NCBI GenBank assembly: GCA_902800395.1
Contig: CADCEC010000009.1
Span: 10,488-74,487 of the forward strand
Length of the DNA: 64,000 bases
Source of the DNA: an uncultured Bacteroidota bacterium
Lineage (GTDB): Bacteria; Bacteroidota; Bacteroidia; Bacteroidales; P3
Reading direction: 5' to 3'
Shown here piece after piece: positions 11,317 through 64,000 of this stretch. Below the pieces are notes generated by a model, which did no database searches, was not told the origin of the DNA, and was given only the letters and a program-made list of their open reading frames with translations. The position numbers and the translations under genes are program-made. Within the stretch, counting starts at the first letter, position 1. Each line of letters opens with the position of its first letter.

Positions 11317-11357
11317 CTTCATATCTCTTATTCCAAAAAGAGGAAACAAAGAGGGGG

Positions 11358-30555: not shown

Positions 30556-30930
30556 ATGAAGAAAATCATCAACACACCCAACGCCCCCGCGGCTATCGGA
30601 CCCTACAGCCAGGCTGTGCAGGCCGGCAACACCCTCTACATTTCGGGTCAGATTCCCATTAACCCCGCCACCAAGACTGTCCCTGAGGGCATTACCGCCC
30701 AGACCGAGCAGGTGATGCAGAACATCAAGGCCATCCTCGACGAGGCCGGCTACACCTTCCAGGATGTGGTGAAGAGCACCTGCCTGCTGGCCGACATGGA
30801 GTATTTCAAACCCATGAACGAGGTCTACGCCAAGTACTACAACACCGACTGCCCCGCCCGCGCCGCCTTCGCCGTGAAGGGCCTGCCCATGGGCGTGCTC
30901 GTCGAGATTGAAACCATTGCTGTGAAATAA
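30556..30930 (+). CDS. ridA: RidA family protein (YjgF/L-PSP)
   Basis: APAAIGPYSQAV...YISGQIP and PARAAF.V..LP.GVLVEIE. Confidence 0.9.
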   Translation: MKKIINTPNAPAAIGPYSQAVQAGNTLYISGQIPINPATKTVPEGITAQTEQVMQNIKAILDEAGYTFQDVVKSTCLLADMEYFKPMNEVYAKYYNTDCPARAAFAVKGLPMGVLVEIETIAVK

Positions 30931-30943
30931 TAAACGATACAAT

Positions 30944-32083: not shown

Positions 32084-32098
32084 TAGAAAGTTAAGACA

Positions 32099-32884: not shown

Positions 32885-32889
32885 TAGCC

Positions 32890-39860: not shown

Positions 39861-40421
39861 CTATTCCACCCCTTCAAGGCTCATCAACGAGTGAACGGGG
39901 GCGATGTCCTCGAGAATCTTGCGTCCGCCCAAGACTGGCAGTTCCACCAGGAAGATAAACTCTTTAATGCGTATCCTCTTGCCGTCGATAACCTGCTGCT
40001 GCAATGAATCGACGATACCCTTCACCGTGCCACCCGTGGCCAGCAAGTCGTCGAAAAGGGTAATGTCGATATATTCACTGCTGCAGCACGCCGCGAAATC
40101 ACTACGCCTATAGAACAACTCGTCACTGCCATACTCTTTCATGATTTCCACCTTTACCAGGTCTCCCTCGGCATGCGGCAGTTTACCCTTCTTACGGAAA
40201 GGAACGATGTTCTTCACGTGGTCGCTCACCGATAGTAACGGTGCGGCGAAGAGGAAACCTCGGGCCTCGACGGTGGCCACATTGGGAGCCGTCGTCAGTC
40301 GGTCGATTTCCCTGACTGCCTGTTGGAAAGCCTCCTTATCCTGCAAGAAAGGCAGCACATCAATGAAATCGATTCCCGGTTTTGGGAAGCCCAAATAGTG
40401 TTTAATGACGTTTTCGAACAT
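39861..40421 (-). CDS. apt: Adenine phosphoribosyltransferase-like
   Basis: FPKPGIDFIDVLPFL, EARGFLFAAPL, and the PRPP motif LFDDLLATGGT. Confidence 0.8.
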   Translation of the reverse strand: MFENVIKHYLGFPKPGIDFIDVLPFLQDKEAFQQAVREIDRLTTAPNVATVEARGFLFAAPLLSVSDHVKNIVPFRKKGKLPHAEGDLVKVEIMKEYGSDELFYRRSDFAACCSSEYIDITLFDDLLATGGTVKGIVDSLQQQVIDGKRIRIKEFIFLVELPVLGGRKILEDIAPVHSLMSLEGVE

Positions 40422-40451
40422 AACTCTTAATTCTTAACTCTTAATTCTTTA
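40421..40451. repeat. (TAACTCT/TAATTCT)n heptamer repeat between the apt start and the atoE stop
   Basis: taactcttaattcttaactcttaattcttta. Confidence 0.85.
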
Positions 40452-41795
40452 CAAAGCCCAAATCACCAATCCGCCACAGATAATCACTCCCGTAATCAGC
40501 AGGTCCACCAAGCAGTAGCCCATGATGTCACGCGCCGAGAGCTTGGCAATGGCCAGTGCCGGCAGTGCCCAGAAGGGCTGGATGAGGTTGGTCCAGGCGT
40601 CGCCCCAGGCGATAGCCGTGCCCGTGAGTCCGTCGGCGACGCCGAGGGCCGCTCCCGCAGGCAGCATGATGGGGGCCTGAATGGCCCAATGGCCGCCACC
40701 CGACGGAACGAACATATTCAGCAGTGCAGCAAAGAGGAATGTCAGCAGCGGATAGGTCACCGGGGTGCTGATATTCACGCAGAAGTCGGCGATGACATTG
40801 CCCATGCTCACACCGCTGGCACCCACGCCTGTGATAATGCCCATGATACCGGCATAGAGCGGGAACTGCAGGATGATGCCCGCAGCGCCCGTGGTAGCCT
40901 TGCCGAAAGCTCGCACATAAGCCATCGGTGTGCCATGCAGCATCAGTCCCAACGAGAGGAATATCATGATGACGGTGCCCAAGTCGAGGCTACCGCCACG
41001 GAAGCCAAGCTTCGCAACCACATACGCCGCCAGTAGCAGCGCTATCATCCAAGAGAGGATGGGGCTGTTCTCAAGCCGCTGCGCAGGGGTTGGATTTTTA
41101 AGGTCCTTAGTGTCCTTAATATCCTTAGTGTCTTCTTCCAGCAGCACCGGATCCACCGTCACTGCCCCCTTCTTGGGGTGCATCAGGGTGTTGGCTACGG
41201 TGATAGCCACGATGACCAGCAGCACCATCACAAGGTTGTGCACGTCGAAGATGGTCTGCGACACCGGCACCGTGAGATTCATGGCGCCGCCCGTCACCTT
41301 GCCAATCTCACCCTCCGTGGCCATAGTCAGCGGGATGGAACCCGACACTCCGGCATGCCACACCACAAAGCCGCTGTAGGCCGAAGCGATGAGCAGTCGG
41401 TAGTCAACCCCTGCCAGCTGTCGCGCGATAGCCTTGGCGAAGACCACGCCGATGATAAGTCCAAAGCCCCAGTTCAACCAACAGGCCAACGCCGAAACCA
41501 CTGTCACCAAGGCTATTGCTGCCGCCGGTGTCTTGGGTATGCGCGCCAACGCGTCGATACCCCTCTTGATGGCGGGAGCCGCCGCCAGCGCACTGCCGCA
41601 CACCAGCACCAATGCCATCTGCATGGCGAAAGCCAGCAGGTTCCACACTCCCCCTCCCCAGTGCTCCACCACCTCGATGGGGGTCTGATGGCAGACAGGC
41701 ATCACCACCACCGCCGCCACGAAAGTCAGCAGGATGGCAAAGATAAACGGCTCAGGGAGCCACCGTTGTACCAAACGAACACAGATTTTTATCAT
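40449..41795 (-). CDS. atoE: Short-chain fatty acid transporter (AtoE family)
   Basis: The N-terminus VRLVQRWLPEPFIFAILLT and a polytopic profile are typical of the AtoE/TIGR00366 family. Confidence 0.8.
   Translation of the reverse strand: MIKICVRLVQRWLPEPFIFAILLTFVAAVVVMPVCHQTPIEVVEHWGGGVWNLLAFAMQMALVLVCGSALAAAPAIKRGIDALARIPKTPAAAIALVTVVSALACWLNWGFGLIIGVVFAKAIARQLAGVDYRLLIASAYSGFVVWHAGVSGSIPLTMATEGEIGKVTGGAMNLTVPVSQTIFDVHNLVMVLLVIVAITVANTLMHPKKGAVTVDPVLLEEDTKDIKDTKDLKNPTPAQRLENSPILSWMIALLLAAYVVAKLGFRGGSLDLGTVIMIFLSLGLMLHGTPMAYVRAFGKATTGAAGIILQFPLYAGIMGIITGVGASGVSMGNVIADFCVNISTPVTYPLLTFLFAALLNMFVPSGGGHWAIQAPIMLPAGAALGVADGLTGTAIAWGDAWTNLIQPFWALPALAIAKLSARDIMGYCLVDLLITGVIICGGLVIWAL
41098..41132. 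repeat. (CCTTAGTGT/CCTTAATAT) 9-nt repeat, in frame in atoE (DTKDIKDTKDLK)
   Basis: ttaaggtccttagtgtccttaatatccttagtgtc. Confidence 0.75.
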
Positions 41796-42986: not shown

Positions 42987-43039
42987 CTGTTTAACCATTG
43001 TTTAACCATTGTTCTACCATTTTAATGGTTGAACAATAG
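42987..43039. repeat. Three direct TGTTTAACCAT-type 11-mers plus one inverted copy (hairpin 43008-43037)
   Basis: ctgtttaaccattgtttaaccattgttctaccattttaatggttgaacaatag. It may also act as the terminator for the 43076 gene. Confidence 0.7.
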
Positions 43040-44313: not shown

Positions 44314-44317
44314 ACAA

Positions 44318-44400
44318 GTGGAAAACGGAAAGTGGAAAGTGGAAAGTTATTTGGCGTCAGCATCGTTTTCCACTTTACTCTTTCCACTTTCATCTTCCAC
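44318..44400. repeat. Inverted pair of (GGAAAGT)n blocks bracketing the tatA stop codon
   Basis: gtggaaaacggaaagtggaaagtggaaagt (44318-44347) versus ttttccactttactctttccactttcatcttccac (44366-44400). Confidence 0.85.
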
Positions 44401-44541
44401 ACCGTTCATTCCGTCCTTGAAGCTCTTGACGCCTTTGCCCACGCCGTGCATGAGTTCAGGGATTTTCTTGCCGCCGAAGAGCAGCAGGACGACAAGGACG
44501 ATGACGATAATTTCCCAGGTTCCTAACATTAACAGTTTCAT
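44347..44541 (-). CDS. tatA: Twin-arginine translocase subunit TatA/E
   Basis: TM helix followed by [19 protein letters not shown]. The C-terminal tail is repeat-derived. Confidence 0.9.
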
Positions 44542-47025: not shown

Positions 47026-48370
47026 AAATCACAGCATGTATTTCGCGGCCTTCGACGTAGATGGCCTTGGTGGGCGTCGCGGGACAGTAGTATTCACACT
47101 TGCCGCAGCCGATGCACTTGTTTTCATGGACGGCGGGGATGCCGTCGACCATCTGGATGGCTTGAGCGGGGCAATGACGCTCGCAGAGGCCACAACCGAT
47201 GCAGTTGTCCTTGAGGACCACGGCATAGCCGATGCTGATGGTGGTCTTCTCGTCCTTGCTCACAGGCTGAATAGCGCCCGAGGGACAGAGCTCGCTGCAG
47301 CGAGTGCAGGCAAGTCGGCAGAAACCCTGATCGAAAGCCATAACGGGCTGCAGGAATCCGTCGAGGCCGGTGGAAGGACGCAACACATGCTCGGGACATT
47401 TTCCAACACAAAGCTGGCAGGCGGTGCAGCGGCTCAAAAAGTTCTTAAGGCTGATGGCGCCAGCAGGTTTCAGAGGGGTTTGGCGCTCGGGGATGGCCTT
47501 GTTTTCAACGAGAGCCATGCCTGCGGCGGCTTTCTCCTCCTGGGCATGGAGGACAGAGGCAGTGCCTACAGCAGCTGTGACGGCAAGGAATTTGCGACGG
47601 GAGGGATCAACAGTGCTAGATTCTCTAGAATTTCTAGAAATTGTTATTGCACCTTGTTTGCAGTGTCCGAGACAGTTGAAACACATCACACAGCGGCTGC
47701 CGTCGACCGTCTTGTCCTCAAGATTGATGCAGTTGGCTTTGCAGCGCTTCTCGCACTTGCGACAGCCGACGCACTTCTCGCGGTCAATGCGGATACCAAA
47801 GAGTGAGTGCTTGCTGAAGAGGCTCAGCAGGGAACCTACGGGACAGAGGGTGTTGCACCAAAGGCGACCGTACATGAAACTCATCACGCCAACGCAACAG
47901 AGTGTAGCGATGGCCACCCAGTGTACCAGACCACTGCCGTGGATATTAGCCACCATACGGGCGTAGGCACTGTAGGGGGCCACCAAGGAGGCTATTCCGT
48001 TCAGTCCAAAGAACATCAGTATAACAAAGAGTGCCAACACGATATAGCGCAGCCAGTTCTGTGGCTTACGGTAACGGTAGGGACGCTTCTTGCCAAAAAT
48101 AATTTTGTGGAACCAGCTGAATATGTCCTGAAAGATACCCATGGGGCATACCACAGAGCAGTAGAGTCGGCCAATGAGGGATGTTACCAGCAAGATGGCC
48201 ACCACGACCACCACATTGAGCGCAAGGATGGCCGGCAACAATTGCACTTTAGGCATCCATCCCAACCAGTGTCGCAACACAGCGCCGTCGGTAAAATCGA
48301 ATATCAGTGCCGTAATGCCGAAAAGCATCAGCGCGGCCAGAACGATTCGGATAACTTTTAAACTTTTCAT
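47024..48370 (-). CDS. Membrane polyferredoxin: NapH/MauN-like half fused to a NapG/MauM-like half
   Basis: TM helices with CSVVCPMG and CNTLCPVG, plus two 4Fe-4S motifs. Then the internal sequence SRRKFLAVTAAVGTASVLHA. Then four more CxxCxxCxxxCP motifs. Confidence 0.75.
   Translation of the reverse strand: MKSLKVIRIVLAALMLFGITALIFDFTDGAVLRHWLGWMPKVQLLPAILALNVVVVVAILLVTSLIGRLYCSVVCPMGIFQDIFSWFHKIIFGKKRPYRYRKPQNWLRYIVLALFVILMFFGLNGIASLVAPYSAYARMVANIHGSGLVHWVAIATLCCVGVMSFMYGRLWCNTLCPVGSLLSLFSKHSLFGIRIDREKCVGCRKCEKRCKANCINLEDKTVDGSRCVMCFNCLGHCKQGAITISRNSRESSTVDPSRRKFLAVTAAVGTASVLHAQEEKAAAGMALVENKAIPERQTPLKPAGAISLKNFLSRCTACQLCVGKCPEHVLRPSTGLDGFLQPVMAFDQGFCRLACTRCSELCPSGAIQPVSKDEKTTISIGYAVVLKDNCIGCGLCERHCPAQAIQMVDGIPAVHENKCIGCGKCEYYCPATPTKAIYVEGREIHAVI
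47615..47642. repeat. (TCTAGAAWT)-type repeat, in frame in the polyferredoxin (ISRNSRES)
   Basis: gctagattctctagaatttctagaaatt. It lies directly upstream (in the protein) of the internal RRKFL motif. Confidence 0.65.
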
Positions 48371-51357: not shown

Positions 51358-52578
51358 ATGAAACGAATCCTCTCTTTTGCTTTGATTTTGCTGCCACTTA
51401 CTGTCGTAGGACAAAGACTCTCCGAAGAGCAAAGCAAGCATCGCATAGAACAGCTACAGCATCTCATGCAGCATTACCAGCCTCATTTAGCATGCGATTT
51501 TGAGTATTATCCCGACTGCGGCTTTGTCGTCTTCACCGACAGCACCGACTGGCAGGGTATTGTGGCTCTCGACGGCACAATACTGTTGCCTGCTAAATAT
51601 ATTGTCTATAGGCAGATTATCGAAGAACACCCCTCGCCTTATTTTCTAGTCCTAAGCGAAGACAAGATGGGCATCATAGACAAGGAAATGCGGTGGGTGC
51701 TGCCTATGGAATGTGACTACGACGGATCCTGCTTGAGGGGGTGTTACATGCCTAATATGCATCACTGGCTTGAGGAAGGACATTCATGTTTGGCGAAATT
51801 CAAGCCTGAAAAGTCGCATGCTGAAGGGAGTCCCAAAACGACTACGCCAAAGACTCCGCGACTGGCGATAAACGGTCCATATGAGAGCCTCGACACACTT
51901 TTCGATGGCCTTTTCCTCTTCTATACCGACAACCCCGGCGACCGGGGCGACTATATCTTCGGCTATGTGGACATCTATGGAAACACCACCGCCACCCCTA
52001 CTCAGTTGGCCACAATGGAGAAGTGGATGAGTGGTGTGATTGACTATGATGTGAAACCTATACAAATTACCAGTATTGTCCCCTGTAAAGAAGCAGAGAA
52101 CGATTATGCCACTGTTCTCTCCTGTCTGAGCGACACGCATTCGGTGGGCTATTTGCTGGTTCCAAACGGGGATTCTATATCGATGGCAAGATTCAACCGT
52201 TGTGTCTCGGAGGACTTATGGGGAAAGGCGGTAGGTATCAGTCACAAGAGATTCGACGCTGGCTTGTCCGATGTTCGGCAGGCGGAGATGCTTCTGGCCG
52301 AACTCATGAAAGACGACGTACTTCCCCGCTTTGGACGGCGCCGTCGCTACATTGGCAACACAAGTAACTATACGAAATATAAACGTGTTTATGGATTCTA
52401 CTACAACGAGGATGGCGAGCGGTGTGTCTATATCGAGATGAATCTTAGAGAATTCCATGATTACCGTATAGGATTCAGGCAGATGTGGGACGCCTGCGAC
52501 GCGGTGGCGTATATCAACCTCAACCTCGAGTCCCGCAAGGTGATAAGGGCTTACGGTAGCTCATGTCAATCGTATTAA
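51358..52578 (+). CDS. WG-repeat (KWG) containing secreted protein
   Basis: Signal peptide. Repeated segments of the type WQGIVALDGTILLPAKY and MGIIDKEMRWVLPMECDY. Confidence 0.55.
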   Translation: MKRILSFALILLPLTVVGQRLSEEQSKHRIEQLQHLMQHYQPHLACDFEYYPDCGFVVFTDSTDWQGIVALDGTILLPAKYIVYRQIIEEHPSPYFLVLSEDKMGIIDKEMRWVLPMECDYDGSCLRGCYMPNMHHWLEEGHSCLAKFKPEKSHAEGSPKTTTPKTPRLAINGPYESLDTLFDGLFLFYTDNPGDRGDYIFGYVDIYGNTTATPTQLATMEKWMSGVIDYDVKPIQITSIVPCKEAENDYATVLSCLSDTHSVGYLLVPNGDSISMARFNRCVSEDLWGKAVGISHKRFDAGLSDVRQAEMLLAELMKDDVLPRFGRRRRYIGNTSNYTKYKRVYGFYYNEDGERCVYIEMNLREFHDYRIGFRQMWDACDAVAYINLNLESRKVIRAYGSSCQSY

Positions 52579-52588
52579 ATTTACAACC

Positions 52589-53875
52589 ATGAAGAAAATA
52601 TTTTTAACTTTTACTTTTATTTCCACCTTTGCCTTCTGCCACGCTCAGCACGACAGCATTGCCGAAAGCGACACGGCCATTCTGCAGCGTATCGACGAGT
52701 GGCAGGATTTGAAGTTCGGATTTATGATGCATTGGGGCATCTACGCCCAATGGGGCGTGGTGGAGAGCTGGAGTATCTGCAACGAGTCGTGGATTACTCG
52801 TGAGATGCTGGATGAGAACGGTCGTCCCATCAAGGGCACCAAGGGGGAGGATTTCTACAAATACAAGCAGGCTTACCAAGCGCTGAACAAAACCTTCAAC
52901 CCCAAGCATTTCGCCCCCAAGCAGTGGGCGACAGCGGCCAAAGGCGCCGGCATGAAATACGTCGTCTTCACCACCAAGCATCATGACGGTTTCTGCATGT
53001 TCGACACACGCTATACCGACTACAGCAGCATGGGGTCTGAATGCCCGGCACAGACCGACTTCACACGCGGCGTGGTCGACGCTTTCCTCTCCCAGGGCTT
53101 CTGGACGGGTCTCTACTTCTCCAAACCCGACTGGCACAACGACGACTATTGGGCCCACGAATGGGCCACACCCGACCGCAACGTGAACTACTCCATCGCC
53201 GACCACCCCGACCGCTGGCAACGCTACAAAGACTTCACCTACAACCAAATCCACGAGCTAACACACAACTACGGCAAGATAGACATCCTCTGGCTCGACG
53301 GCGGCTGGGTGCGCCCCGAGTGGAGCGTCAACGACGAGACACGTCCTTGGCTCGGATGCAGCGGTCAGGTGCAGGATGTTGATATGGAGCGCATCGCCAC
53401 GATGGCCCGCGAACAAAACCCGCAGATGATCATCGTCGACCGCAGCGTCGGCGGCCGCTACGAGAACTACCGCACCCCCGAGAAGCAGGTGCCCGACACC
53501 CTCCTCCCCTACCCCTGGGAGACCTGCATGACCATGGGCGACAGCTGGAGCTACGTGCCCAACGACAACTACAAAAGCGTCAAGACCCTCATCCACATGC
53601 TCTGCGATGTGGTAGCCAAGGGCGGCAACCTGCTGCTCAACGTGGGTCCCGACGCCGACGGCAACCTGCCCGTCGAAGCGCTCCAACGCATGGAGGAAAT
53701 AGGCAAATGGTTGGATAAGAACGGCTACTCCATCTACGGCACCCGCCCGCTCTTCCCCTACTGTAAGGGCAACGTCCGCTACACGCAGAGCAAAGACGGC
53801 AAGCATCAGTATGCAATTACGCTGACAGAGGAAGCCCCCTACGCCACGGTTAAGGAACTAAGAACTAAGAACTAA
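52589..53875 (+). CDS. Alpha-L-fucosidase (GH29)
   Basis: FGFMMHWG, KHHDGFCMFDT, and WLDGGW. The last 7 codons are read from a (TAAGAAC)n repeat. Confidence 0.85.
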   Translation: MKKIFLTFTFISTFAFCHAQHDSIAESDTAILQRIDEWQDLKFGFMMHWGIYAQWGVVESWSICNESWITREMLDENGRPIKGTKGEDFYKYKQAYQALNKTFNPKHFAPKQWATAAKGAGMKYVVFTTKHHDGFCMFDTRYTDYSSMGSECPAQTDFTRGVVDAFLSQGFWTGLYFSKPDWHNDDYWAHEWATPDRNVNYSIADHPDRWQRYKDFTYNQIHELTHNYGKIDILWLDGGWVRPEWSVNDETRPWLGCSGQVQDVDMERIATMAREQNPQMIIVDRSVGGRYENYRTPEKQVPDTLLPYPWETCMTMGDSWSYVPNDNYKSVKTLIHMLCDVVAKGGNLLLNVGPDADGNLPVEALQRMEEIGKWLDKNGYSIYGTRPLFPYCKGNVRYTQSKDGKHQYAITLTEEAPYATVKELRTKN

Positions 53876-53893
53876 GAAGTAAGAACTAAGAAT
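53851..53893. repeat. (TAAGAAC)6 heptamer repeat from the GH29 C-terminus to the GAF gene ATG
   Basis: taaggaactaagaactaagaactaagaagtaagaactaagaat. Confidence 0.9.
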
Positions 53894-54364
53894 ATGACGA
53901 AAGAAGATAAATATGCCGCCCTGCTGCCGCAGGTGAAAGCCCTCTGCGAGGGAGAAGAGGATATCATCGCCAAGATGGCCAACGTCAGCGCCCTGCTGCA
54001 CCAGGAATTTGCCTTCTGGTGGACTGGATTTTACCGCGTCGTGGGCAACGAGCTGCTACTTGGGCCTTTTCAAGGTCCCATTGCCTGCGTGCATATCGCC
54101 TATGGGCGAGGCGTCTGCGGCACAGCGTGGAAAGAGCATCGCACCGTGGTGGTGCCCGACGTGGAGGAATTTCCCGGACATATCGCCTGCAGCAGCGAGA
54201 GTCGCAGCGAGATTGTAGTGCCCGTGTTTAAAGTGGAAAGTGGAAAGCGGAAAGTGGAAAACAAGGAGGTCATTGCCGTCCTGGACATCGATAGCCGCGA
54301 ACTAGCCACTTTCGACGACATCGACGCCCGATGGCTCGAGCAAATCGTCAAACACATCCCCTGA
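53894..54364 (+). CDS. GAF domain protein (free methionine-R-sulfoxide reductase-like)
   Basis: WTGFYRV...LLGPFQGPIAC..I.YGRGVCG and SEIVVP...VLDIDS. Carries one (GGAAAGT)n insert. Confidence 0.8.
   Translation: MTKEDKYAALLPQVKALCEGEEDIIAKMANVSALLHQEFAFWWTGFYRVVGNELLLGPFQGPIACVHIAYGRGVCGTAWKEHRTVVVPDVEEFPGHIACSSESRSEIVVPVFKVESGKRKVENKEVIAVLDIDSRELATFDDIDARWLEQIVKHIP
54230..54262 (+). repeat. (GGAAAGT)4 repeat, in frame in the GAF gene (KVESGKRKVEN)
   Basis: aaagtggaaagtggaaagcggaaagtggaaaac. Confidence 0.9.
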
Positions 54365-54373: not shown

Positions 54374-55063
54374 CTACTCAAAACGGTATCCCACCAACAA
54401 TGAAACCTTATAGGGATAGACGTATGTTCCCGGCGTCTCAAGATTGAGGATATCCGTAATGCCCATACGGGCATCCAGTTGCAACTGCCACTTGTTTTCG
54501 AATTCATAGCCCACCGCCAGCGCGACACCGGCATGGATGTCGCTCAATGCGAAACGGACCTTGCCGGTAACGGGGTCGGTATATACCTGCCGCCGATAGA
54601 GATTGATACCCTCGTCGACATACGAATAAAAAACGAAATGGCAGAAGGGAGCCACCGAGAAGAAAAGGTTCCCCGAAGAGATCGGAACACGATAGATTAC
54701 AGGCAACGAGAAGTCTGTTCCCATCGTGAGCATGTAACTGCGGTGAGTGGAAAAACTAAGGGTGGTGCAGTCCATCCCCAAACGACCGTTGAGCTGCACA
54801 CTCCACCGGCGGGTGATGTGGTACTCGAAGAAAGCCCCTATGTCGACACCCACACCGGGGGTGGCGCTAAGAAGAGAGTCCATAATAAGGGTGTCGCGCA
54901 GCAAGGGATCCACACGCATGACAAAAGACGAGATATTGCCTCCTCCTTGAAGCCCCCAGCTGATAGTCTGCCGATGGTCGTCATCGTCGCCCCACACCTC
55001 CGTCTGCGCATAGACCGAATTGAAAAAAGAAATTATCGCGACAAGAACAAATACCCTCTTCAT
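54374..55063 (-). CDS. Outer-membrane beta-barrel (porin family) protein
   Basis: Signal peptide ending VYAQ, alternating beta-strand pattern, and aromatic C-terminus ...VGYRFE. Confidence 0.65.
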   Translation of the reverse strand: MKRVFVLVAIISFFNSVYAQTEVWGDDDDHRQTISWGLQGGGNISSFVMRVDPLLRDTLIMDSLLSATPGVGVDIGAFFEYHITRRWSVQLNGRLGMDCTTLSFSTHRSYMLTMGTDFSLPVIYRVPISSGNLFFSVAPFCHFVFYSYVDEGINLYRRQVYTDPVTGKVRFALSDIHAGVALAVGYEFENKWQLQLDARMGITDILNLETPGTYVYPYKVSLLVGYRFE

Positions 55064-55097
55064 AACTATTATCTATTAACTATCATCTATTAACTAC
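55064..55097. repeat. (TATCTATTAACTAT)n 14-nt repeat filling the DUF5686-gene/OMP-gene spacer
   Basis: aactattatctattaactatcatctattaactac. Confidence 0.85.
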
Positions 55098-55098: not shown

Positions 55099-57738
55099 TT
55101 ATAGCTGGAACTTCAGGTCGATACGAATAAACCAACGCTCGTCGGTAGGAAGACCCTCGAGATAACTTAAGCGACGCACATAGTCGACTCGAAGGAACTT
55201 GAGGATATTCTCAATACCGATGCTATACTCCATATAAGGCGTGGTGCCAAAAGCTTTGGTGTCCGGGGGAAATTGGTAGAGTCCCACGGGATCATTCATC
55301 GGGTTGTTTTTAGGGCTCAATCCTCCATAGAGGATATTGAATCCTACCACTTCCCGCAAACGAAGTCTGTTGATGAGCGGTATTCGGTTGAGTATCCATC
55401 CTTTCAAATGGTAGGTAGCATAGAAGGCTACCCATTGGTCCATAATGAACTCCATGGGTTTCATGGTGTTGAAGGCCGACGAGGAAAGGAAGAGTCCTGT
55501 ATTGCCGCTGGGGATGTAGAGCCGCGGATAGGGAACACGGTTCCAAACCACTCCGGAGACCAGCTTGGCGTCGATATGCCCGAAAGAGGAGAGCCAGAAT
55601 CGCTTCTCCGCCGAGAAATCGGTACGGTGGAACAATGTGGCACCGTCAAACATGGCTACCGTGTGACTCAGATTAATGGTGGGGGCGTCACGTCGCAACG
55701 ACGACTGCTTCTCGCGTCTACGCGTACCCGAGACGAAATTGGGCGTAAAACTCAGACTGCCAGTCCATTCGGCTTCCGTGAAGAAATCAACATCCCGCAG
55801 CGTGCCGTCAGGCTGATACTGAAGGTACTGCAGCAATCCCGCAGGCTCATATCGCCGCGCTGCCACCCAGGTGTCGAAGCGCAGATGGCTGCGCCATTCC
55901 TTACGCAACCTCAGCACTGCTTGCGTCACATATTGCACTTTCTTCGGACTCTCCGTCGACGACAGGATGTTGTCGCGGTCGAAGTTGTCGTAGGCCTGGC
56001 CGGGAGTTTCCAACTCATAACCCGCCATCAGACTCAGACTGCTGTAAGGTCCTTCATGCGAATGACGTTCCTTGTCATCGAAAGTATACGTATAAGTGGA
56101 ACTGAATTTGGGACGCTGGTCACGGAAGCCGTAGGCCAAATAACCCTCCCAGAAATGGCGCGGACTGAGTTTTGCTTTCGTCATACCGCCCACGCGCACT
56201 CGCCAGCCTTCTTCATGGTTGTGACTGAGGAAGTTGTATACAGGTCCAAAGTCAAAACGGCTCTCCTTGCGCTCTTTCCTGGTGGAGATGTAGCCGCTGA
56301 CAAGCACTTCGCCGGTGCGCTTGATGAACTGAAACTCTGGCAGGCGCTCCAGCTCCACCCACATGCTGTCGAGCACCGTCTCCTTGGCGCTGAGTTTCAC
56401 AGGACGCACGGCGTTGAACTCGCTCTTGTAGCGCGTCATCTTATCCTTCGGCAGCGACGCCTCGTGCTCAAAAGCCGAAAAGAGACTGTCGGGCAGCATT
56501 TCCGCCGTATCACTCAGGTCGTAGTTCGTGTATACTCGCATCTGGTGTACATAGAGCTCCTGGATGTGCTTCGAGATATACATCCGACCGTAGGTATCAC
56601 ATCTATAGGGAAGATAACGTCTCGTCACACTGTCCTTGTGGAATGTCTGCACAATGGTTAGGTCGCGTACAAAGTTCAGGTTCACCTTGGGCGACACCGC
56701 CAGCACATACTTCGCCACAGCGAAAGAGCTGTCTGCATCTAGCGCCACATACATCCTCCCCGTGAAACCATAGCTCTGCTCGTTGGCCGGCACGAAACTG
56801 AGCTCCACACATTTCTGTCCGTCGACAAAAGTGGTGTCAGTAATATAGTATTTGTAGTAGGTAACAGCCATAAACGAGGAGAGTGGACTGACAAAATGAT
56901 TCAGCATCAATTCGATGTCTCCGTCATAGATATCTACGGGCATAAACATCGCCTCAATGTTGGCATCCAACCCCTCATCGCTGAGCACCTCATCGAGGCC
57001 CTCCATGCGTTTTCCCGTCAACAGGCGGCGGCGCTGACTGGGTTTCTGCCTATAGCTCTCCTCGGCTAGATACTCTCGCATCGATACCACCAGTATAGGT
57101 GTGGCATCAAAGGGGGTCTCGTCGATATATTTCTCCAGAAAATCAAGTTTACGCCAAAACCAACTATTCTCGAAGTCGGGATCGAAATCGTCGAGCGACA
57201 TCGAGAGCCTCTCGTAAGCATCTCTTCGCCATTGCGGTGCACCGTCCAGACGGTTCTCCTCCTTGTGGGCTATCACCTTTTCCACAAGTTCCACAGCGGG
57301 ATTGTGCCTCCGCGAATACTTCCCACTACCCTTCTTCGCCGTCACCTCCACAGCCTTCAACGTCTGCCCCTTGGGTACCAGCTTCACCGTCGCTCGCTTC
57401 TTCGTCTTCCCACGCTGCAACTTCATCTTCTGCGGCTCATAGCCCATCATGCGGAAACTCACGGTGGTGTAACCCTGCTCGTTGCTGATGCTGAACTTGC
57501 CGTCCATATCTGTCTCCGTACCCACGGTGGTACCATCGAAGACTATCTGCACAAAGGGTATCGGTTCGTTCGTCTCTGCATCCACCACCTTGCCCTTCAG
57601 CGCCGTCGTCGCACTCTGCGCCTGAACACTTGAAAAATGAAAAATGAAAAATGAAAAAACAAGGAATGAAAGGATGCGAAAGGCAACTATTGTCCTTTCA
57701 CTCCCTTTCACTCCTTTTTCACTCCCTTTCACTCCCAT
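55099..57738 (-). CDS. Carboxypeptidase-regulatory-like domain plus DUF5686-like large outer-membrane protein
   Basis: LKGKVVDAETNEPIPFVQIVF.GT.VGTETDMDGKFSI followed by a long beta-rich region. The N-terminal ~36 codons are repeat-derived, so the start is uncertain (ATG 57738 or a GTG 27 nt downstream). Confidence 0.7.
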   Translation of the reverse strand: MGVKGSEKGVKGSERTIVAFRILSFLVFSFFIFHFSSVQAQSATTALKGKVVDAETNEPIPFVQIVFDGTTVGTETDMDGKFSISNEQGYTTVSFRMMGYEPQKMKLQRGKTKKRATVKLVPKGQTLKAVEVTAKKGSGKYSRRHNPAVELVEKVIAHKEENRLDGAPQWRRDAYERLSMSLDDFDPDFENSWFWRKLDFLEKYIDETPFDATPILVVSMREYLAEESYRQKPSQRRRLLTGKRMEGLDEVLSDEGLDANIEAMFMPVDIYDGDIELMLNHFVSPLSSFMAVTYYKYYITDTTFVDGQKCVELSFVPANEQSYGFTGRMYVALDADSSFAVAKYVLAVSPKVNLNFVRDLTIVQTFHKDSVTRRYLPYRCDTYGRMYISKHIQELYVHQMRVYTNYDLSDTAEMLPDSLFSAFEHEASLPKDKMTRYKSEFNAVRPVKLSAKETVLDSMWVELERLPEFQFIKRTGEVLVSGYISTRKERKESRFDFGPVYNFLSHNHEEGWRVRVGGMTKAKLSPRHFWEGYLAYGFRDQRPKFSSTYTYTFDDKERHSHEGPYSSLSLMAGYELETPGQAYDNFDRDNILSSTESPKKVQYVTQAVLRLRKEWRSHLRFDTWVAARRYEPAGLLQYLQYQPDGTLRDVDFFTEAEWTGSLSFTPNFVSGTRRREKQSSLRRDAPTINLSHTVAMFDGATLFHRTDFSAEKRFWLSSFGHIDAKLVSGVVWNRVPYPRLYIPSGNTGLFLSSSAFNTMKPMEFIMDQWVAFYATYHLKGWILNRIPLINRLRLREVVGFNILYGGLSPKNNPMNDPVGLYQFPPDTKAFGTTPYMEYSIGIENILKFLRVDYVRRLSYLEGLPTDERWFIRIDLKFQL
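57631..57736. repeat. (TGAAAAA)4, then an inverted pair of (GTGAAAGG)-type blocks, forming the first ~36 codons of the DUF5686-like gene
   Basis: tgaaaaatgaaaaatgaaaaatgaaaaaac; ggaatgaaaggatgcgaaagg; cctttcactccctttcactcctttttcactccctttcactccc. Confidence 0.85.
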
Positions 57739-57741: not shown

Positions 57742-60700
57742 TTATTTAAATGCATTCTCACTCAGTCCATGTCCGCTCAGCGCAAGGTCTTTCATGTAGC
57801 CCGGCACCTCACGGCCGAGGTACTTGTCGACATACAACTTGGCAAGATACTGGCCCAGCATGAATCCGTGTCCACGCAAACCCGTCAAGAGGCCCACTTC
57901 GGGGTCGACGATGTAGCGCGGCTCGGTGTAGCGACCCGCCCAGCAGGCCAGGAAGCTGACATCCTTGAGGCTGGGCAGCCATTCGGCAAAGACCTGGCTG
58001 ACAATTTCGAGGAACTCTTTGCTGTTGTACTTGATGTTCTGACGCGTCTCGTAGGCGTCGGTGTCGGGGCTGGCGCAGCCGATAATCTGGCCAGTGTGCT
58101 CGAACTGCTGTCCGTAGACGGCGCTGAAGCCCTTGTAGTGGCGACGGTCGATAATCATATCCAGCGGGCCGCCGTTGGGTCCCATCATAGGCAGGCGGCG
58201 TGTGATGAAGGCCTGGTGCTTCACGGGATAGAGGCCGGTGTCGATGCCCAGCATATCGGTGAACTTCTCGGCACCCCAGCCCATGGCGTTGACGAAATGG
58301 CCGCAGGTGTACTCGACATACTTGCCCTCGTGATTGCGTACCAGTGCGACGACCTTGTCGCCCTTGCGCCAAACGCTGAGCAGCTCGGTGTCCTCGTAGT
58401 AGCGGCCACCGAGGCTCACGCCGATACCGCGGATATAATCGATGACGCGACCCGGCGTAGCCTGCCAGCAGTCGCGCGTAATCAACGCGTGGCTGTATGT
58501 GTCGCGCGTGTCGTCCCACAGCGGCGAAATCTCTTTCTTGAAATCCTTGCGGTCAATCATGTAGGCGTCGCTCCAAGCGCGGCTGGCATCGAGGGCTTTA
58601 TAGGTAGCCTCGTCATGCACTAGATTGACATAGTGCGTGGGCTTATAGTTGATATTGTGTACTTTCTGTATGCCTTTGAAGATTTCGTGGCTGTGCTGTG
58701 CGATGTCGGCGATATCGGGATTCGAGAATGCCGGACGGCCGCCGCCGATATTCCTCCACGAGGCACCGCGGCTCCAGTTCACCATCACGGGCTTCATACC
58801 TGCCTCGCTGAAGTAGCGGAACAGGCCACTGCCCGCAATACCGCCGCCAGCAATGAACACCTTCACCTCCTCCTTCTGTACGTCGTTGCCCTTCGGGAAG
58901 ACATACACCTCCTTACGGCCTTCAGTGTAGACATCACCGAGCGACACCTGGTTGCTCAGCGGCGCGCGTGGAGTGGCGTCGCCGGTGAGCTCTATGCCGT
59001 GGGCTTTCAGCACTCCGCGGGCGCGGGCAATGCAGCGCTTTCCGCGGCAGGGACCCATACCCATGCGGGTGATGTGCTTCAGCTCGTCGACAGAGATATA
59101 CTTGCGGTCGCCCACAACCTCCAGCATCTGCTCCTCGGTGATATCCTCGCAATGGCAGATGTAAGTAGGCTCTTTCTGAGCATTCTGAGTATTCTGAGTA
59201 TTTAGACCACTTGGATATTTCTCTTTCACAATAAATCCCTTCACATCGGTCATCTGGCCGTCGACTTGAGCGACGAAGACGCGTGCCACATTGGTCTTGT
59301 TGTCTTTCTTGAGCACCTTCTCCACCTTGCCCTCGCCAATCTTCTTTCCGTTGTTGTCCACCAACCACACCTCGGCACCGTCCTCCACCTCGTACTCGAT
59401 GGGCAAAAAACACCAGTTCTTCGCCATATCGTAGCCAAATATAGCCAGGCCGGGGCAGTGGTTCACGCAGGCCATACAGCCGATGCACTTGTTGTAGTCC
59501 ACCGTCGGCGTACTGCTGGTAGTGGGCTTGCTGATGGCACCCTGCGGACAGCTGAAAGTACAGGGATTGCAGGCGAAGCCGTAGAGGCAGTCCAGCTGCA
59601 CGAAAGGCTTCATCGCCATGCGCTCCGGAGTGGGCAGGTTCGGCTTCTCCAGCAGACGGATGGGGTGCTGCTGCGAGTCGATATACTGGCGCGAAATGTC
59701 GAGATACTCGTCGTAGTTGAAACGAATGGCGAGTTCCTGGGCAATCTCGTAGGCAGCCTGCTTGCCACGCAGCACAGCGCTGGTGCCCTCGCCAATCCTC
59801 ACCGCGTCACCCACACCGTAGACATGATGCCCAAAGAGTTCCTTACCCTTGGTCAGCAGCTGGTTGTCGGGCACCAAGCCGGTGCAGATATTGATGATGT
59901 CGATATCGTCTATCACCTGCTCGGTGCCGGGGATAGGCTTGAAGTTCTCGCACTTGGCAATGACGGCGCCCGTGATGCCGGTATACTTTTTATTAGGTAT
60001 CGCACGCACCAGCGTGTAGCCCGTCATGATGGGGATGCCGAGTCGGCGCACACGGTTGGCCTGCACCGGGAAGCCACCCTCGCGGGGCATAGCCTCGATG
60101 ATGGCCTTGATGGTGGCTCCGGCCTGCATGCCCTGATACGAGGTCAGGTAGCCGATATTGCCGGCACCCACCGTCAGCACCCGCTTACCCAACAGCGTAT
60201 GCTCCTGATTCATCATTTTCTGGAATACGGCGGCGGTGTAGACACCCGGCACATCGTCGTTCTCGAAAGCCGGCATGAATGGTACGGCACCCGTGGCCAC
60301 CACGAGGAACTGGGCATCCACGTAGGCCATCTCGCTGGTAATGATATTCTTTATCGCAATACGCGGACCCTCCAGCAGGTCCCACACCGTATTGTTCAGC
60401 AGTATGCCCTCCTGATTGTCACCGGCCAATGTCTTTGCAATATCGAAGCCACGCATGCCGCCGTATTTCTTCTCCTTCTCGAAGAAGAAGAACTGGTGTG
60501 TCTGCATGTTGAACTGGCCTCCGATACGGCCGTTGTTGTCGATGACAAGGTTGTCCACCCCGAAAGCATTCAGCTGCTCGCGGCAAGCCAATCCCGCAGG
60601 ACCGGCTCCGATGATGGCTACGGTGGTCTTATAGATAGTCAATGCACTTTCAGCCTGCGACTTGGCAGGAGCATCAAATGTAACACCCGGCAGGTCAGCC

Positions 60701-60993: not shown

Positions 60994-61072
60994 GTAATGT
61001 TTAACGTTTATCGGTTAAGGGTTAATGAGCGAAGTGATTGATTCTTAATTCCTAATTCTCAATTCTCGATTC
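60994..61072. repeat. Two adjacent repeat blocks in the oxidoreductase/ypfJ divergent region
   Basis: gtaatgtttaacgtttatcggttaagggttaatgag, then attcttaattcctaattctcaattctcgattc. Confidence 0.7.
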
Positions 61073-61154
61073 GCAAAGCCAACCACAAAAGTAATCATCT
61101 TTTTTGACAAATGCAAGAAAAAAATCAAAAAGTTGTCGGAATGTTTTTTTTTCG

Positions 61155-62108: not shown

Positions 62109-62175
62109 TTTGTTATTTGTTCTGCCTGCTTGCAGACTTTGAGCTCCGCTGAATTAAATTAAATCCTGCGAAAAA

Positions 62176-62209
62176 CTGTTATCTATTAACTATTATCTAT
62201 TAACTATCA
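62176..62209. repeat. (TATCTATTAACTAT)n 14-nt repeat overlapping the OMP gene stop
   Basis: ctgttatctattaactattatctattaactatca. Confidence 0.85.
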
Positions 62210-63454
62210 TTCCCCCACCGGGTAGCGGTAGCGGGTACTATTGCTGCCAAAGTTGTAGATGTAACCCACGGTGATGCTGGGCAAACCGCCCCAATCGCCA
62301 TAGGCTTTCGGCAAGTCCTCTCCGGCCTCGGGCCGGATGCCGGCAATGGTGGGCGGGACCATCATGTATTTAGCGTCGAGATAGATGTCACTGTGATGGC
62401 CGAGGTAATAGCGGAACATGATGCCTATATCGGCCGTCATGTTGAAGGTGAGTTCATCGTAGCGCCAGATGAGTCCTGCACCGAGGTAAGGCAACACATT
62501 GAGGCGCACGCCACGGGTGAATCTGACAAGGTGTGTCAGGTTCACCATCACATCGGTATGGAAGTTGGAATAGGAATATTTCTCACCCGGACGGCTCTCA
62601 ACGGTGTCGTAGGGCTCGTGCGCCGTAAGTCCACTGAGTTCGAAGCGGATAGTCCATACATTGCTGTAGTTGCGGCCGAACTGAATCTCGGGAGTGACAC
62701 CATACATTCCCCATTCACCGAGATTACGAAACGAGAAGGAGGAGAAGTTGGCACCAATACCGAGACCCACCCACCAGTCTTCGGCAGTACTGCGCGAGGA
62801 GAACTCGGTCTTGCGGGTGAAGGGGTTGTCGGACCAACGATGAGTGACACCGAGGGTGATAGAGTGCATGTAGTTGTTATTGGCGCTACCGTCGAAATAC
62901 TGCGAGAGGAAGAACCACTTATACTCGAGGAAAGCGTCCCAAAGGGGTGCGATGCGGACGGGAAAATGAAGTCCCAACATAGCCTGGAAGTCGTCATCAG
63001 ACTTGTGGGTGACACCCGCTGCCGTCACCGACGGACGGATGACCATACCCACACCCAGCATGGGATAGACGGGGAAGGGCTTGAGAATGGTGCCGTTATA
63101 GACATGGAAGAAGGTGGCATTGACATCCCAGATGAATTCTGCGCTCCCCATGAAGTACATGGAGTTGTCGCTGCCCCCGTTCTGCCAATGGCTGGGCGTC
63201 ATCATCATGTCGAACCCGAAGCGGAACGCCAGCGGGCGCGTAATCCAACATCCCAAGTTAAGGGTGGCGGTGGGCACAGAGAACTGCCCCTCGCCAGAAT
63301 GCTGATAATAGACGCCACCGACTCCCAACGACAGGAACCACGGATCGTCTCCGGTCCTTTTGTAGCTCTGAGCCTGAACTTGGGAAGGCAAGAGGTAAGA
63401 ACCAAGAACTAAGAGGCTGACACATAATATTTTTTGCATTTTGGTCTGTTTCAT
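62207..63454 (-). CDS. Hypothetical outer-membrane beta-barrel protein
   Basis: Signal peptide ending QVQAQ and an aromatic/Gly-rich alternating pattern. No family recognised. Confidence 0.5.
   Translation of the reverse strand: MKQTKMQKILCVSLLVLGSYLLPSQVQAQSYKRTGDDPWFLSLGVGGVYYQHSGEGQFSVPTATLNLGCWITRPLAFRFGFDMMMTPSHWQNGGSDNSMYFMGSAEFIWDVNATFFHVYNGTILKPFPVYPMLGVGMVIRPSVTAAGVTHKSDDDFQAMLGLHFPVRIAPLWDAFLEYKWFFLSQYFDGSANNNYMHSITLGVTHRWSDNPFTRKTEFSSRSTAEDWWVGLGIGANFSSFSFRNLGEWGMYGVTPEIQFGRNYSNVWTIRFELSGLTAHEPYDTVESRPGEKYSYSNFHTDVMVNLTHLVRFTRGVRLNVLPYLGAGLIWRYDELTFNMTADIGIMFRYYLGHHSDIYLDAKYMMVPPTIAGIRPEAGEDLPKAYGDWGGLPSITVGYIYNFGSNSTRYRYPVGE
63391..63418. repeat. (TAAGAAC)-family copy read in antisense as the signal-peptide core (SLLVLGSYLLP)
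   Basis: agaggtaagaaccaagaactaagaggct. It shares gaggtaagaaccaagaa with the locus at 4050. Confidence 0.7.
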
Positions 63455-63475
63455 AATTCCAAATTAATTAATTAT

Positions 63476-63509
63476 TACTTCTTAGTTCTTACTTCTTAGT
63501 TCTTAGTTC
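63476..63509. repeat. (CTTAGTT)n repeat from the OMP gene leader into the tig stop codon
   Basis: tacttcttagttcttacttcttagttcttagttc. Confidence 0.85.
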
Positions 63510-64000
63510 ATTTTGGCGCGTTCGGCAAACTCCTTGGCGGAGACTTTCTCCACTTCAGGTTTCACCTGATCCTTGAAGAGCTTACTGAGGTTGTCGGCAA
63601 AGATACGGTCGGTGAGCTGGCCCACATTCTTGCGGTCGGCGGCGATGCTACGGGCGGCCTGTTCGAGGCGCTGCTCGGTCTGCTCCTTGGTCTCGCCTTT
63701 CACGGGCTGGTCGTTTTTGCGTAGGATGTCCTTGATATAGTCAACAATCTGGTTCTGGGTGGGGTTGACGGGGGCAATCTCCTCAAGCTTCTCCTCAATG
63801 AGTTCCCACTTCAGCGAGGGGACATATTTGTCGTTCCAATCGGCCTCAATGCTCTCGGGAGTCATATCTTTCTCACCACGGCTGGCAAACCAACGTTTCA
63901 GGAAAGCCTCAGGCAGCGGGGCGCTGAACCGGTCAAGGAGGGCCTTGCGGACCTGGTTGACGAAGAGGTAGTCGCTCTGCTCGTTGTTGGCTTTCTCAAT
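63503..64000 (-). CDS. tig: Trigger factor, C-terminal part (5' end outside the window)
   Basis: The frame stays open to nt 64000 (…LPEAFLKRWFASRGEKDMTPES…). This is the helical, acidic/basic C-terminal domain typical of trigger factor. Confidence 0.65.
   Translation of the reverse strand: MEKANNEQSDYLFVNQVRKALLDRFSAPLPEAFLKRWFASRGEKDMTPESIEADWNDKYVPSLKWELIEEKLEEIAPVNPTQNQIVDYIKDILRKNDQPVKGETKEQTEQRLEQAARSIAADRKNVGQLTDRIFADNLSKLFKDQVKPEVEKVSAKEFAERAKMN

Follow-up and report, generated by a model that had tools for sequence, protein, structure and literature searches.

Short heptamer arrays at gene junctions and within genes of a rumen Bacteroidales genome, with all-frame stop codons as a likely by-product

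The 64-kb stretch of DNA analyzed here (the window; 64,000 nucleotides of contig CADCEC010000009.1 from an uncultured Bacteroidota bacterium) contains a short tandem array of the heptamer GAACTAA at the junction of two genes on the forward strand. The upstream gene (52589-53875) encodes an alpha-L-fucosidase of family GH29 (Pfam PF01120, 8e-93), and the downstream gene (53894-54364), delimited by orthologue alignment, encodes a GAF-domain protein for which an exact-protein lookup yielded no match. The array was detected by Tandem Repeats Finder (TRF) on the forward strand at 53855-53892 with 5.4 copies and 93% matches, and it fills the junction in such a way that the ATG of the GAF gene at 53894 lies 1 nt past its end. 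The last codons of the GH29 gene read gtt aag gaa cta aga act aag aac TAA, the deduced protein ends with VKELRTKN, and the stop codon at 53873-53875 is the third in-register TAA of the array.

An earlier note on this DNA had deduced that a stop-bearing heptamer closes every reading frame within three units, since 7 equals 1 modulo 3. This arithmetic is correct, and the array behind the GH29 gene (53855-53892) closes all three frames on the forward and the reverse strand alike, as had been claimed. The same closure in all frames of both strands, predicted for AATTAAG- and AATTAGG-like arrays, was verified at 26364 and 24376. The RNA of the region 53846-53900 is essentially unstructured, with a folding energy of -0.4 kcal/mol and 197 of 200 shuffled sequences folding better. 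A terminator and promoter scan detected neither a promoter nor an intrinsic transcription terminator (a GC-rich stem-loop followed by a U tract) at the array, and an Rfam search of the window matched none of the arrays, its sole match being a tRNA-Met at 29128-29204.

The history of the junction was deduced from the closest relatives, which are metagenome-assembled genomes (MAGs) of uncultured rumen Bacteroidales. The related set comprised the window and 114 non-redundant related loci (1.67 Mb in total), the loci being samples of 1-20 kb around one gene and carrying L numbers in the following, and genes were called as greedy longest open reading frames (ORFs) with ATG starts. In most relatives the array is absent from the GH29-GAF junction, which reads ...GTN AAG GAA CTT AAA GG. 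... AAA TGA, and the fucosidase TGA overlaps the ATG of the GAF gene (ATGA). The comparison of C-terminal tails among orthologues, which the earlier note had proposed, accordingly contrasts the array-encoded tail of the window with the ending VKELKGKARK of the relatives. The array of GAACTAA is present at this junction in the window and in L092, the window containing one unit more, and different units occupy the same position in other genomes, namely (GTAGTTAA)n in L001, L010, L016, L019, L082, L089 and L096 and (GAAGTTAA)n in L008. At the 3' end of the GH29 gene the relatives bear GAACTTAA within ...AAGGAACTTAAAGG..., and each of the three junction units is one or two changes away from this local GAACTTAA, which argues for amplification of a 7- or 8-mer in situ, at the very 3' end of the gene. 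The locus L081, with 95% DNA identity to the window, lacks the arrays at 53855 and 54230 and has an ordinary 30-nt spacer at the GH29-GAF junction, and it keeps the window arrays at 55063, 57631 and 57694 unchanged (95-99% flank identity). A recombination mosaic in L081 had been suspected from a GH29 fragment of only 84% identity and was rejected, as the local DNA identity is 93-97% around both sites; the difference in presence and absence therefore stands. The GH29 gene of L081 also contains a 36-nt in-frame insertion relative to the window at 53768 that is devoid of heptamer periodicity. Within the window, the stop codon TGA of an aldo-keto reductase gene overlaps the ATG of tatA (ATGA, 44538-44541), which indicates that tight stop/start overlaps and array-filled junctions coexist in one genome.

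The GH29-GAF array is one of approximately 30 short repeat arrays that were found. A strict detector yielded 13 period-7 arrays in the window and no array at all for periods 5, 6 and 8-15 or in shuffled sequences, and TRF reported about 25 period-7 arrays along with a few of period 8-11. The related set, in which all counts are inflated by orthologous arrays, contains 181 arrays of period 7, 52 of period 8, 44 of period 11, 40 of period 9 and 16 of period 6. The units are mostly 7 nt long, in some cases 8 or 11 nt, and the arrays typically consist of 4-5 copies spanning about 30 nt; 79 distinct units were counted among 148 arrays, and the distribution of arrays between genomes is patchy. When the arrays are binned by core copy number in steps of half a copy, each bin between 2.5 and 4.5 copies holds 22-34 of them and the bin at 5.0 copies holds 7; period-6 arrays show a geometric decay of copy number. 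Eighty-five of the 181 period-7 arrays lie within ORFs and are read through in frame, at an array density about 12 times higher outside ORFs.

A few unit families recur per genome. The GGAAAGT family, with no stop codon on either strand, occurs at 8176, 27842, 37145, 44316, 44367 and 54230; four of these six copies are wholly in frame in genes, always in the orientation that codes for hydrophilic VESGKWK-type peptides, and the other two form the arms of a hairpin between tatA and tatC, one of them coding for the tatA tail. The GAACTAA family, with stop codons on both strands, is represented at 27935, 53855 and 63475 and by a degenerate copy at 63390, and its arrays sit at gene junctions with the sole exception of the degenerate copy (63390-63414), which is in frame in a signal-peptide region. 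Units of the GAGAATT/GAAAATT family, with stop codons on one strand (588, 5079, 27413 and 61041), are found inside genes exclusively in the stop-free orientation. Two further families bear stop codons on both strands, namely AATTAAG-like units at 24376, 26364 and 40421 and the 14-mer TAACTAT+CATCTAT at 55063 and 62174.

Arrays translated in frame were identified in at least 12 genes, including dnaG, asd, a hemW-like gene, tatA and the GAF gene, and about a fifth of the genes in this 64-kb housekeeping region hold in-frame non-triplet repeats. In the GAF gene, (GGAAAGT)n at 54230-54260 (forward strand) encodes KVESGKRKVEN and represents a clean 27-nt insertion that is missing from all close relatives. 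On the same strand, (ATTCTCA)n in the YceG gene (588-619) encodes IFNFQFSILNS, an 8-mer array in asd (TATNALTQSSNNA, 4421-4456) makes a loop about five residues longer than that of a homologue in the PDB, (GGAAAGT)2.3 lies in frame in the head domain of a CCA-adding enzyme/poly(A) polymerase (8176-8191), (ATTTTTA)n in the gene of a SPOR protein (26419-26447) encodes the h-region of the signal peptide, and a perfect array of 4.4 copies of AGTGGAA in the gene of an HD-domain protein (37145-37175) encodes IVESGKWKVES. On the reverse strand, (CCCACTA)n is in frame in the linker of a sigma-54 activator (13743-13774), and (CCGACCT)n (TPTSDLRPPTSDL) is in frame in the DnaG linker (15316-15352), where it adjoins a 9-mer array at 15350-15415. 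A second array in dnaG (FKESGDKETGDK, 16161-16194) lies in the catalytic core, where an alignment with the PDB structure of Aquifex DnaG revealed a 9-residue insertion. The hemW-like radical SAM gene contains (TTCAATT)n at 27413-27442, encoding TFQFSAFNFQL, and (TGGAAAG)n at 27842-27870, encoding KVESGKWKVES just past the CxxxCxxC motif. Signal peptides that are partly built from arrays were observed at 57631-57738 (reverse strand), 26396-26447 and 5105-5144 (both forward strand); (TTTTTCA)n and (ATTTTTA)n encode F/S/I-rich h-regions and (GGGAGTGAAA)n a K/G/E-rich n-region.

Junction arrays of the window follow a common pattern, as 12 of the 13 end 0-9 nt before the next start codon. On the forward strand, (GTAAGAA)n at 4053-4088 contributes its first TAA as the stop codon of a gene with a type IX secretion system (T9SS) domain and includes the ATG of asd (4083-5099, Pfam) at 4083 within its end; (AAATTGA)n at 5079-5104 is read by asd for about three units (KLKIEN) and is directly followed by the ATG of a gldH-like gene at 5105; the 8-mer array (TAACGCAT)n at 8001-8025 begins at the stop codon of the ORF 7455-8003; and (AATTAAG)n at 26364-26394 lies between the stop codon of a Usp gene at 26357 and the ATG of the SPOR gene at 26396. 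On the reverse strand, an 8-mer array at 21979-22013 is located between the RnfD stop codon at 22012 and the RnfG start at 21975, and (AATTAGG)n at 24376-24407 is read for one unit (SNS) by RnfB (24399-25301, Pfam), the RnfC start following 9 nt after the array. A GAACTAA-type array at 27935-27965 contains the stop codon of MeaB at 27958 (gene 27958-29046, Pfam; tail EN) and is directly followed by the GTG start of the hemW-like gene at 27933, (AGAGTTA/AGAATTA)n at 40421-40449 spans exactly the distance from the stop codon of a short-chain fatty acid (SCFA) transporter gene at 40449 to the ATG of apt at 40421, and a 14-mer array (ATAGTTA+ATAGATG) at 55063-55096, identical in L081, is situated between the DUF5686 stop codon at 55099 and the ATG of an outer-membrane protein (OMP) gene at 55063. 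The last array on this strand, (GAACTAA/GAAGTAA)n at 63475-63509, has the probable tig stop codon at 63503 in its first unit and pairs with 63390-63414. A second copy of the 14-mer family was found in a convergent gap (62174-62207) and an ATTCTCA-type array in a divergent intergenic region (61041-61076). All three frames on both strands are closed by the arrays at 24376, 26364, 27935, 40421 and 55063; the array at 4053 closes two frames on the forward strand and none on the reverse strand, and that at 5079 three and none, respectively. For the 8-mer at 8001, which the earlier note held to close every frame, this applies to the three frames of the forward strand but only to two of the reverse strand.

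The five gene-end codon strings quoted in that note (GH29, asd, meaB, tig and rnfB) are correct, and the arrays supply the working stop codons of these genes. Pfam matches bear out the identities of GH29, asd, MeaB and RnfB, whereas the putative tig gene, an ORF on the reverse strand that ends at 63503 with atg aac TAA and is cut by the window end, has only a weak match to TIGR00115 (E=1e-4). The repeat-encoded tails comprise 1-6 residues, with about three units read in GH29 and asd and one in RnfB and MeaB; tig ends in the first unit. Such tails are not a general feature, since a further eight or nine genes next to an array end at the first unit or shortly before it and lack a tail, for example the T9SS gene at 4056, RnfD, the SCFA transporter, DUF5686 and a MORN protein. 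Over all loci, the array starts within -3 to +5 nt of the native stop codon in 23 of 62 cases.

Several further features of the window and of the related set were noted. Period-11 arrays are present at 11349-11386 and 42988-43021 in the window and downstream of the FAD-oxidoreductase gene in L089, L010 and L091; examples are (AAGAGGGGAGT)n, (TGTTTAACCAT)n and an inverted pair of (TTTAACGTTCG)n, and in a first count over 1.39 Mb they were mostly intergenic. Period-9 arrays occur inside genes, namely in the DnaG linker (15350-15415), an SCFA transporter (41103-41132), a FAD oxidoreductase (59174-59202) and a 4Fe-4S protein (47616-47639), and encode three-residue repeats such as NTQ or DTK. In L016, about 90-140 nt past the FAD-oxidoreductase stop codon, (AAACCTT/AAACCCT)n follows an intrinsic-terminator-like hairpin, its unit resembling the plant telomere repeat. 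Genes for an acyl-CoA dehydrogenase and etfB/etfA (30556-33900, forward strand) are free of arrays and show a GC content at third codon positions (GC3) of 0.83-0.89 versus about 0.6-0.75 in the rest of the window. Read from its first ATG at 5857, the uvrC ORF (5668-7458, forward strand) is missing the GIY-YIG portion at its N terminus, and the 188 nt ahead of it have no assignment; possible causes are an alternative start, a frameshift and an error of assembly. Upstream of the GH29 gene, a 406-aa ORF (51358-52578, forward strand) has a GC3 of 0.57 versus about 0.7 in its neighbours, had no Pfam match and no tblastn match among 160 related loci, and may be a recent acquisition.

The stop content of the units was compared with a null obtained by permutation of the letters within each unit, and additionally with conditional and natural stop-spanning nulls. 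A composition-only null, against which stop-free intergenic units (2 of 80 versus 24%) had appeared strongly depleted, was dropped because longest-ORF calling absorbs stop-free arrays and the units are non-random; the replacement nulls give a much smaller effect. Overall, the stop content is only modestly above the per-unit permutation null, as 17% of all 181 arrays are stop-free on both strands versus 23% expected, and the excess is confined to arrays abutting an upstream stop codon. In this group a sense stop was observed in 86% versus 66% under the null, and among those with a sense stop (n=31) an antisense stop in 61% versus 36%; closure on both strands of near-stop arrays amounts to 42% versus 25% overall. 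The sense-strand excess is built into the definition, since an array overlapping a stop codon must contain a stop and stop-free arrays are absorbed by longest-ORF calls. When each family of identical units is counted a single time, the antisense excess decreases to 12 of 22, and it can originate from a preference for TTAA, CTAA or TTAG. Arrays that are free of this ascertainment bias match the composition null: those not touching a stop codon bear a sense stop in 65% (null 55%) and an antisense stop in 58% (null 57%), and those in divergent or convergent gaps have stops on both strands in 32% (null 29%).

A part of the arrays occurs as inverted pairs. For approximately 20 of the 233 arrays of period 7 or 8, an inverted partner lies at a distance of 11-49 nt, and most of these are in frame in genes. 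In the window, the inverted (GGAAAGT)n arrays between tatA and tatC (44316-44396, reverse strand) form a hairpin of -32.5 kcal/mol (z = -5.3). In this hairpin the tail of tatA (ESGKSKVEN) is encoded by one arm, GCTGACGC and the stop codon of tatA are in the loop, and the spacer as far as the tatC ATG at 44313 is taken up by the second arm. In four genomes this junction contains the different pyrimidine-rich units CTTTCCA, TTTCACC, ATTCTCA and ATTTTCA, none of which has a stop codon on the sense strand. A second hairpin (57631-57736, reverse strand; -45.6 kcal/mol, z = -7.0), conserved in L081, has one arm of (GGGAGTGAAA)n and another of (TTTTTCA)n, which code for the n- and h-regions of the DUF5686 signal peptide; in relatives this gene starts with ordinary, shorter signal peptides. 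A third one is formed by the degenerate array in the signal-peptide coding region of an OMP gene (63390-63414, reverse strand) and the array at 63475-63509 (-29.7 kcal/mol, z = -3.6). In this hairpin of two GAACTAA-type arrays (63385-63515, reverse strand), the 65-nt loop holds the start codon of the outer-membrane beta-barrel gene at 63454, and the structure could affect translation initiation.

Two loop positions of the GAF gene represent insertion hot spots across the MAGs. At the first, in-frame hairpins with differing arm units were found in at least eight MAGs. In-frame hairpin insertions, each with different heptamer arms, were noted in the loop between FYRV and LGPFQG, about 140-230 nt past the ATG, in L010, L014, L016, L019-L023, L025, L089, L091, L092, L096, L098, L105, L108 and L114, and several of them have a GCTG(A/C)CGC-type loop in common. 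An element in an unrelated gene (L114:2624-2711) matches the GAF-site element of L089/L091:10144-10228 with 86% identity over 85 nt, both containing the 24-nt loop ATGCTACGCAGGRCGGCGGCAGCC and similar AGTGTTN arms between dissimilar flanks, which indicates copying between sites in addition to local amplification. The same loop ATGCTACGCAGGRCGGCGGCAGCC is combined with AGTGGTC arms at L108:329-416. Strong stems flank the GCTG(A/C)CGC motif in 8 of 386 occurrences versus 0 of 1688 for eight control motifs, and the stem-flanked motifs belong to three gene contexts and both orientations.

These data are best explained, in our judgement with somewhat more than even confidence, by a lineage-specific population of short tandem repeats in rumen Bacteroidales that is made and homogenised in a 7- or 8-nt register, sometimes copied, and filtered by selection against broken genes. 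An array would originate by tandem amplification of a local 7- or 8-mer, as at the GH29-GAF junction, and the turnover of units at orthologous sites suggests that units are kept alike within an array while their sequence drifts between species. Occasionally an array would be copied elsewhere, either solo or as an inverted pair with a common loop, as the matching elements in unrelated genes exemplify. Purifying selection would then sort the products: units with a sense stop would persist only at gene ends and in spacers, and stop-free units coding for hydrophilic peptides would also persist in frame in protein loops, tails and signal peptides. The arrays are sorted by coding compatibility, the array at this junction arose locally, and hairpin elements have been copied. 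Arrays fill a junction exactly because only the space from stop codon to next start is free in compact operons, and an ORF entering a stop-bearing array ends within three units as a matter of arithmetic. We infer that the all-frame stops are a by-product and not a selected function, and that the junction arrays would, at most, provide the following gene with an unstructured spacer or leader rich in purines and A, these bacteria being poor in Shine-Dalgarno sequences.

Some results weigh against this interpretation. Stop-free units in co-directional gaps are rarer than the per-unit permutation null (5% versus 20%), and together with the antisense closure of near-stop arrays stated above (61% versus 36% expected) this may reflect some selection or motif preference for TTAA, CTAA or TTAG; the size of the ascertainment effect caused by longest-ORF calls, which absorb stop-free arrays, was estimated and not measured. 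The 27-nt GGAAAGT insertion in the GAF gene is without obvious local seed, for which copying fits better than slippage. Finally, the narrow length range and the common hairpin loop hint at a dedicated mechanism beyond simple slippage.

A further model, compatible with the favoured one, is in our view possible, if rather unlikely: the arrays would derive from a tiny mobile hairpin element, of which they would be parts or footprints. This element would have heptamer arms of about 30 nt around a conserved GCTG(A/C)CGC-type loop and be spread by a putative enzyme or by templated repair, and solo arrays would be half-elements. The strong folding of the inverted pairs (z = -3.6 to -7.0), the recurrence of loop and arms in unrelated genes from different genomes, the stems flanking the loop motif (8/386 versus 0/1688) in three gene contexts and both orientations, the length ceiling near 4.5 copies (about 32 nt) and the seedless GAF insertion are in accordance with such an element. 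A detectable partner exists, however, for only about 20 of 233 arrays, no target-site duplication was seen, and the 64-kb window encodes no transposase, reverse transcriptase, HUH nuclease or IS200/IS605-like gene. Moreover, the GH29-GAF array is derivable from local sequence, and elements that share a loop have different arms, an unusual property for ends recognised by a transposase.

Less probable is the view that the junction arrays are selected RNA elements that determine the translation of the downstream gene, either as unstructured leaders rich in purines and A or as tandem sites for an RNA-binding protein (S1, Csp or CsrA, for instance). Such a role has been proposed for the TAACTGA repeats of Beggiatoaceae (PMC4679880), and the arrays described here share several of the expected properties, namely the position 0-9 nt before a start codon (12 of 13), a purine-rich sense strand in 30 of 36 near-stop arrays (p=7e-5), an A content of 41% that is similar to the 39% of ordinary leaders (-20..-1), and, at 53846-53900, less structure than in 197 of 200 shuffles. 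Proximity to a start codon is nevertheless forced in very short gaps, pyrimidine-rich arrays also abut start codons (e.g. that of tatC), and the 79 different units speak against one sequence-specific binder. Close relatives manage without the array, and the same units are in frame inside genes, where a leader role is impossible.

The earlier note had interpreted the stop-bearing arrays as selected, orientation- and frame-independent terminators that insulate cistrons or catch read-through or frameshifted ribosomes, and this appears improbable to us. All three sense frames are closed within 35 nt at 55% of the array junctions versus 26% of ordinary spacers, several window arrays close three of three frames on both strands, and near-stop arrays are depleted in stop-free units and enriched in both-strand (42% versus 25%) and antisense (61% versus 36%) closure. 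This excess is gone for arrays not defined by touching a stop codon, and it is reduced to 12 of 22 unit families. Independence of orientation is contradicted by the strong purine bias of the near-stop arrays, and stop-free arrays are common, among them the six GGAAAGT copies and those at the tatA-tatC junctions of four genomes. Furthermore, 85 of 181 period-7 arrays are read through in frame within ORFs, most array-adjacent genes end at a native stop codon before any repeat is read, and no antisense-strand ORFs approach that would need stopping. As to insulation, most relatives have no array and no spacer at the GH29-GAF junction, the ancestral arrangement being the ATGA overlap. In addition, overlaps were counted in 163 of 893 co-directional gene pairs, and in 54% of ordinary spacers at least one frame is still open after 60 nt, which argues against a general need for insulation in these genomes. 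The reading as designed all-frame stops is consequently weakly supported. Phase variation was rejected, as three arrays are identical in L081 at 95-99% flank identity and the genes that harbour arrays have housekeeping functions.

The period-7 stop logic, the placement at start codons and the limit to ORF overlap have already been published for the TAACTGA heptamer direct repeats of marine Beggiatoaceae, some Cyanobacteria and five Bacteroidetes, whose forward repeats contain stops in all three frames and restrict the overlap of ORF ends to at most 18 nt (MacGregor 2015, PMC4679880). Like the arrays described here, these tandem heptamers (2-6 copies) lie for the most part between genes, immediately ahead of start codons; some overlap with the stop codon of the preceding gene, and a few are located inside ORFs in a stop-free orientation (PMC4679880). 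The corresponding placement and orientation are found in the present arrays, 12 of 13 ending 0-9 nt before a start codon and 30 of 36 being purine-rich on the sense strand. In contrast to the single conserved TAACTGA unit, whose related heptamers seldom form repeats in that system and of which no dimer was detected in the window even with two mismatches, at least 79 units are in use here, nearly half of the arrays are inside ORFs, including those of housekeeping enzymes, inverted pairs with a common loop occur, and the hosts are rumen Bacteroidales MAGs. The many unit families, the high share of in-frame arrays and the hairpins with a common loop are new relative to that system.

According to the account given in PMC4679880, the survey of Mrazek et al. 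2007 found heptanucleotides to be the most abundant class of 5-11 nt repeats in prokaryotes, sporadic across phyla, and proposed polymerase slippage with a contact of about 7 nt as the cause. The present arrays conform to such long simple sequence repeats (LSSR), i.e. head-to-tail units of 5-11 nt in arrays longer than composition predicts, with 5.4 copies at 93% and 13 period-7 arrays versus none in shuffles. With respect to copy-number changes by whole units, as expected from slippage, the window has one GAACTAA more than L092, and three other arrays are identical in L081. They deviate from the LSSR, as far as these are described in that account, where in-gene units are mostly multiples of three, by period-7 arrays in frame in genes, by unit families recurring within and between genomes and by a copy ceiling near 4.5.

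Repetitive extragenic palindromic (REP) sequences and bacterial interspersed mosaic elements (BIME) resemble the arrays as short hairpins at gene 3' ends and between cistrons with many dispersed copies. REP stems are described as conserved, with GTAG or CGTC tags (PMC3733652). In contrast to these extragenic elements with conserved stems and RAYT transposases, the stems vary between elements here and the window contains no IS200/IS605-like gene. Phase-variable contingency repeats likewise consist of short tandem units in or next to genes with lengths that are not multiples of three; the arrays differ from them by the three identical copies in L081 and by their location in dnaG, asd and tatA, housekeeping genes in which a frameshift would be lethal.

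The short tandemly repeated repetitive (STRR) sequences of cyanobacteria, heptamers that Mazel and colleagues reportedly described in 1990, comprise several tandem families dispersed in the genome of one lineage, mainly intergenic and of unknown function. The presence of several dispersed heptamer families in one lineage is the shared trait, and phylum and units differ: the STRR units CCCCAGT, TTGGTCA and CAACAGT occur in heterocystous cyanobacteria, and none of them is among the top 60 units listed for the present Bacteroidales hosts. Rickettsia palindromic elements (RPE), said to have been reported by Ogata and colleagues in 2000, are hairpin-forming sequences of 100-150 bp with conserved sequence and no heptamer periodicity that lie in frame in conserved genes and are tolerated as extra surface peptides. 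A palindromic repeat in frame in protein-coding genes is likewise found here, at site 1 of the GAF gene in at least eight MAGs and in the tatA tail. Compared by description, the present elements differ from RPE by a size of 65-105 nt, variable heptamer arms of about 30 nt and a shared loop motif only. No description of such a system was retrieved when the literature was searched for heptamer arrays of Bacteroidales or Prevotella and for palindromic elements that lie in frame in Bacteroidetes.

For genome annotation, these results mean that repeat-encoded tails, in-frame peptides and repeat-built signal peptides are real in these MAGs and ought not to be trimmed away as assembly errors, and that stop-rich arrays should not be taken as regulatory terminators. 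With respect to genome evolution, the non-triplet in-frame repeats in dnaG, asd and tatA are unusual and provide a natural experiment on the peptides that proteins tolerate, and they bear on the question of what sets the 7-nt register of slippage or copying. More speculatively, and with low confidence, rumen Bacteroidales may carry ultra-small self-propagating DNA elements with a conserved GCTG(A/C)CGC-type loop and heptamer arms that are rewritten between copies, which would insert in either orientation, both in frame in loops, tails and signal peptides of housekeeping proteins and at cistron junctions, solo arrays being half-elements or local offspring. Such self-propagation would imply a new mechanism that keeps the arms periodic and complementary while their sequence changes, and a mobile hairpin of this kind would be among the smallest mobile elements known and would constitute a parallel to the Rickettsia palindromic elements in a dominant gut and rumen lineage.

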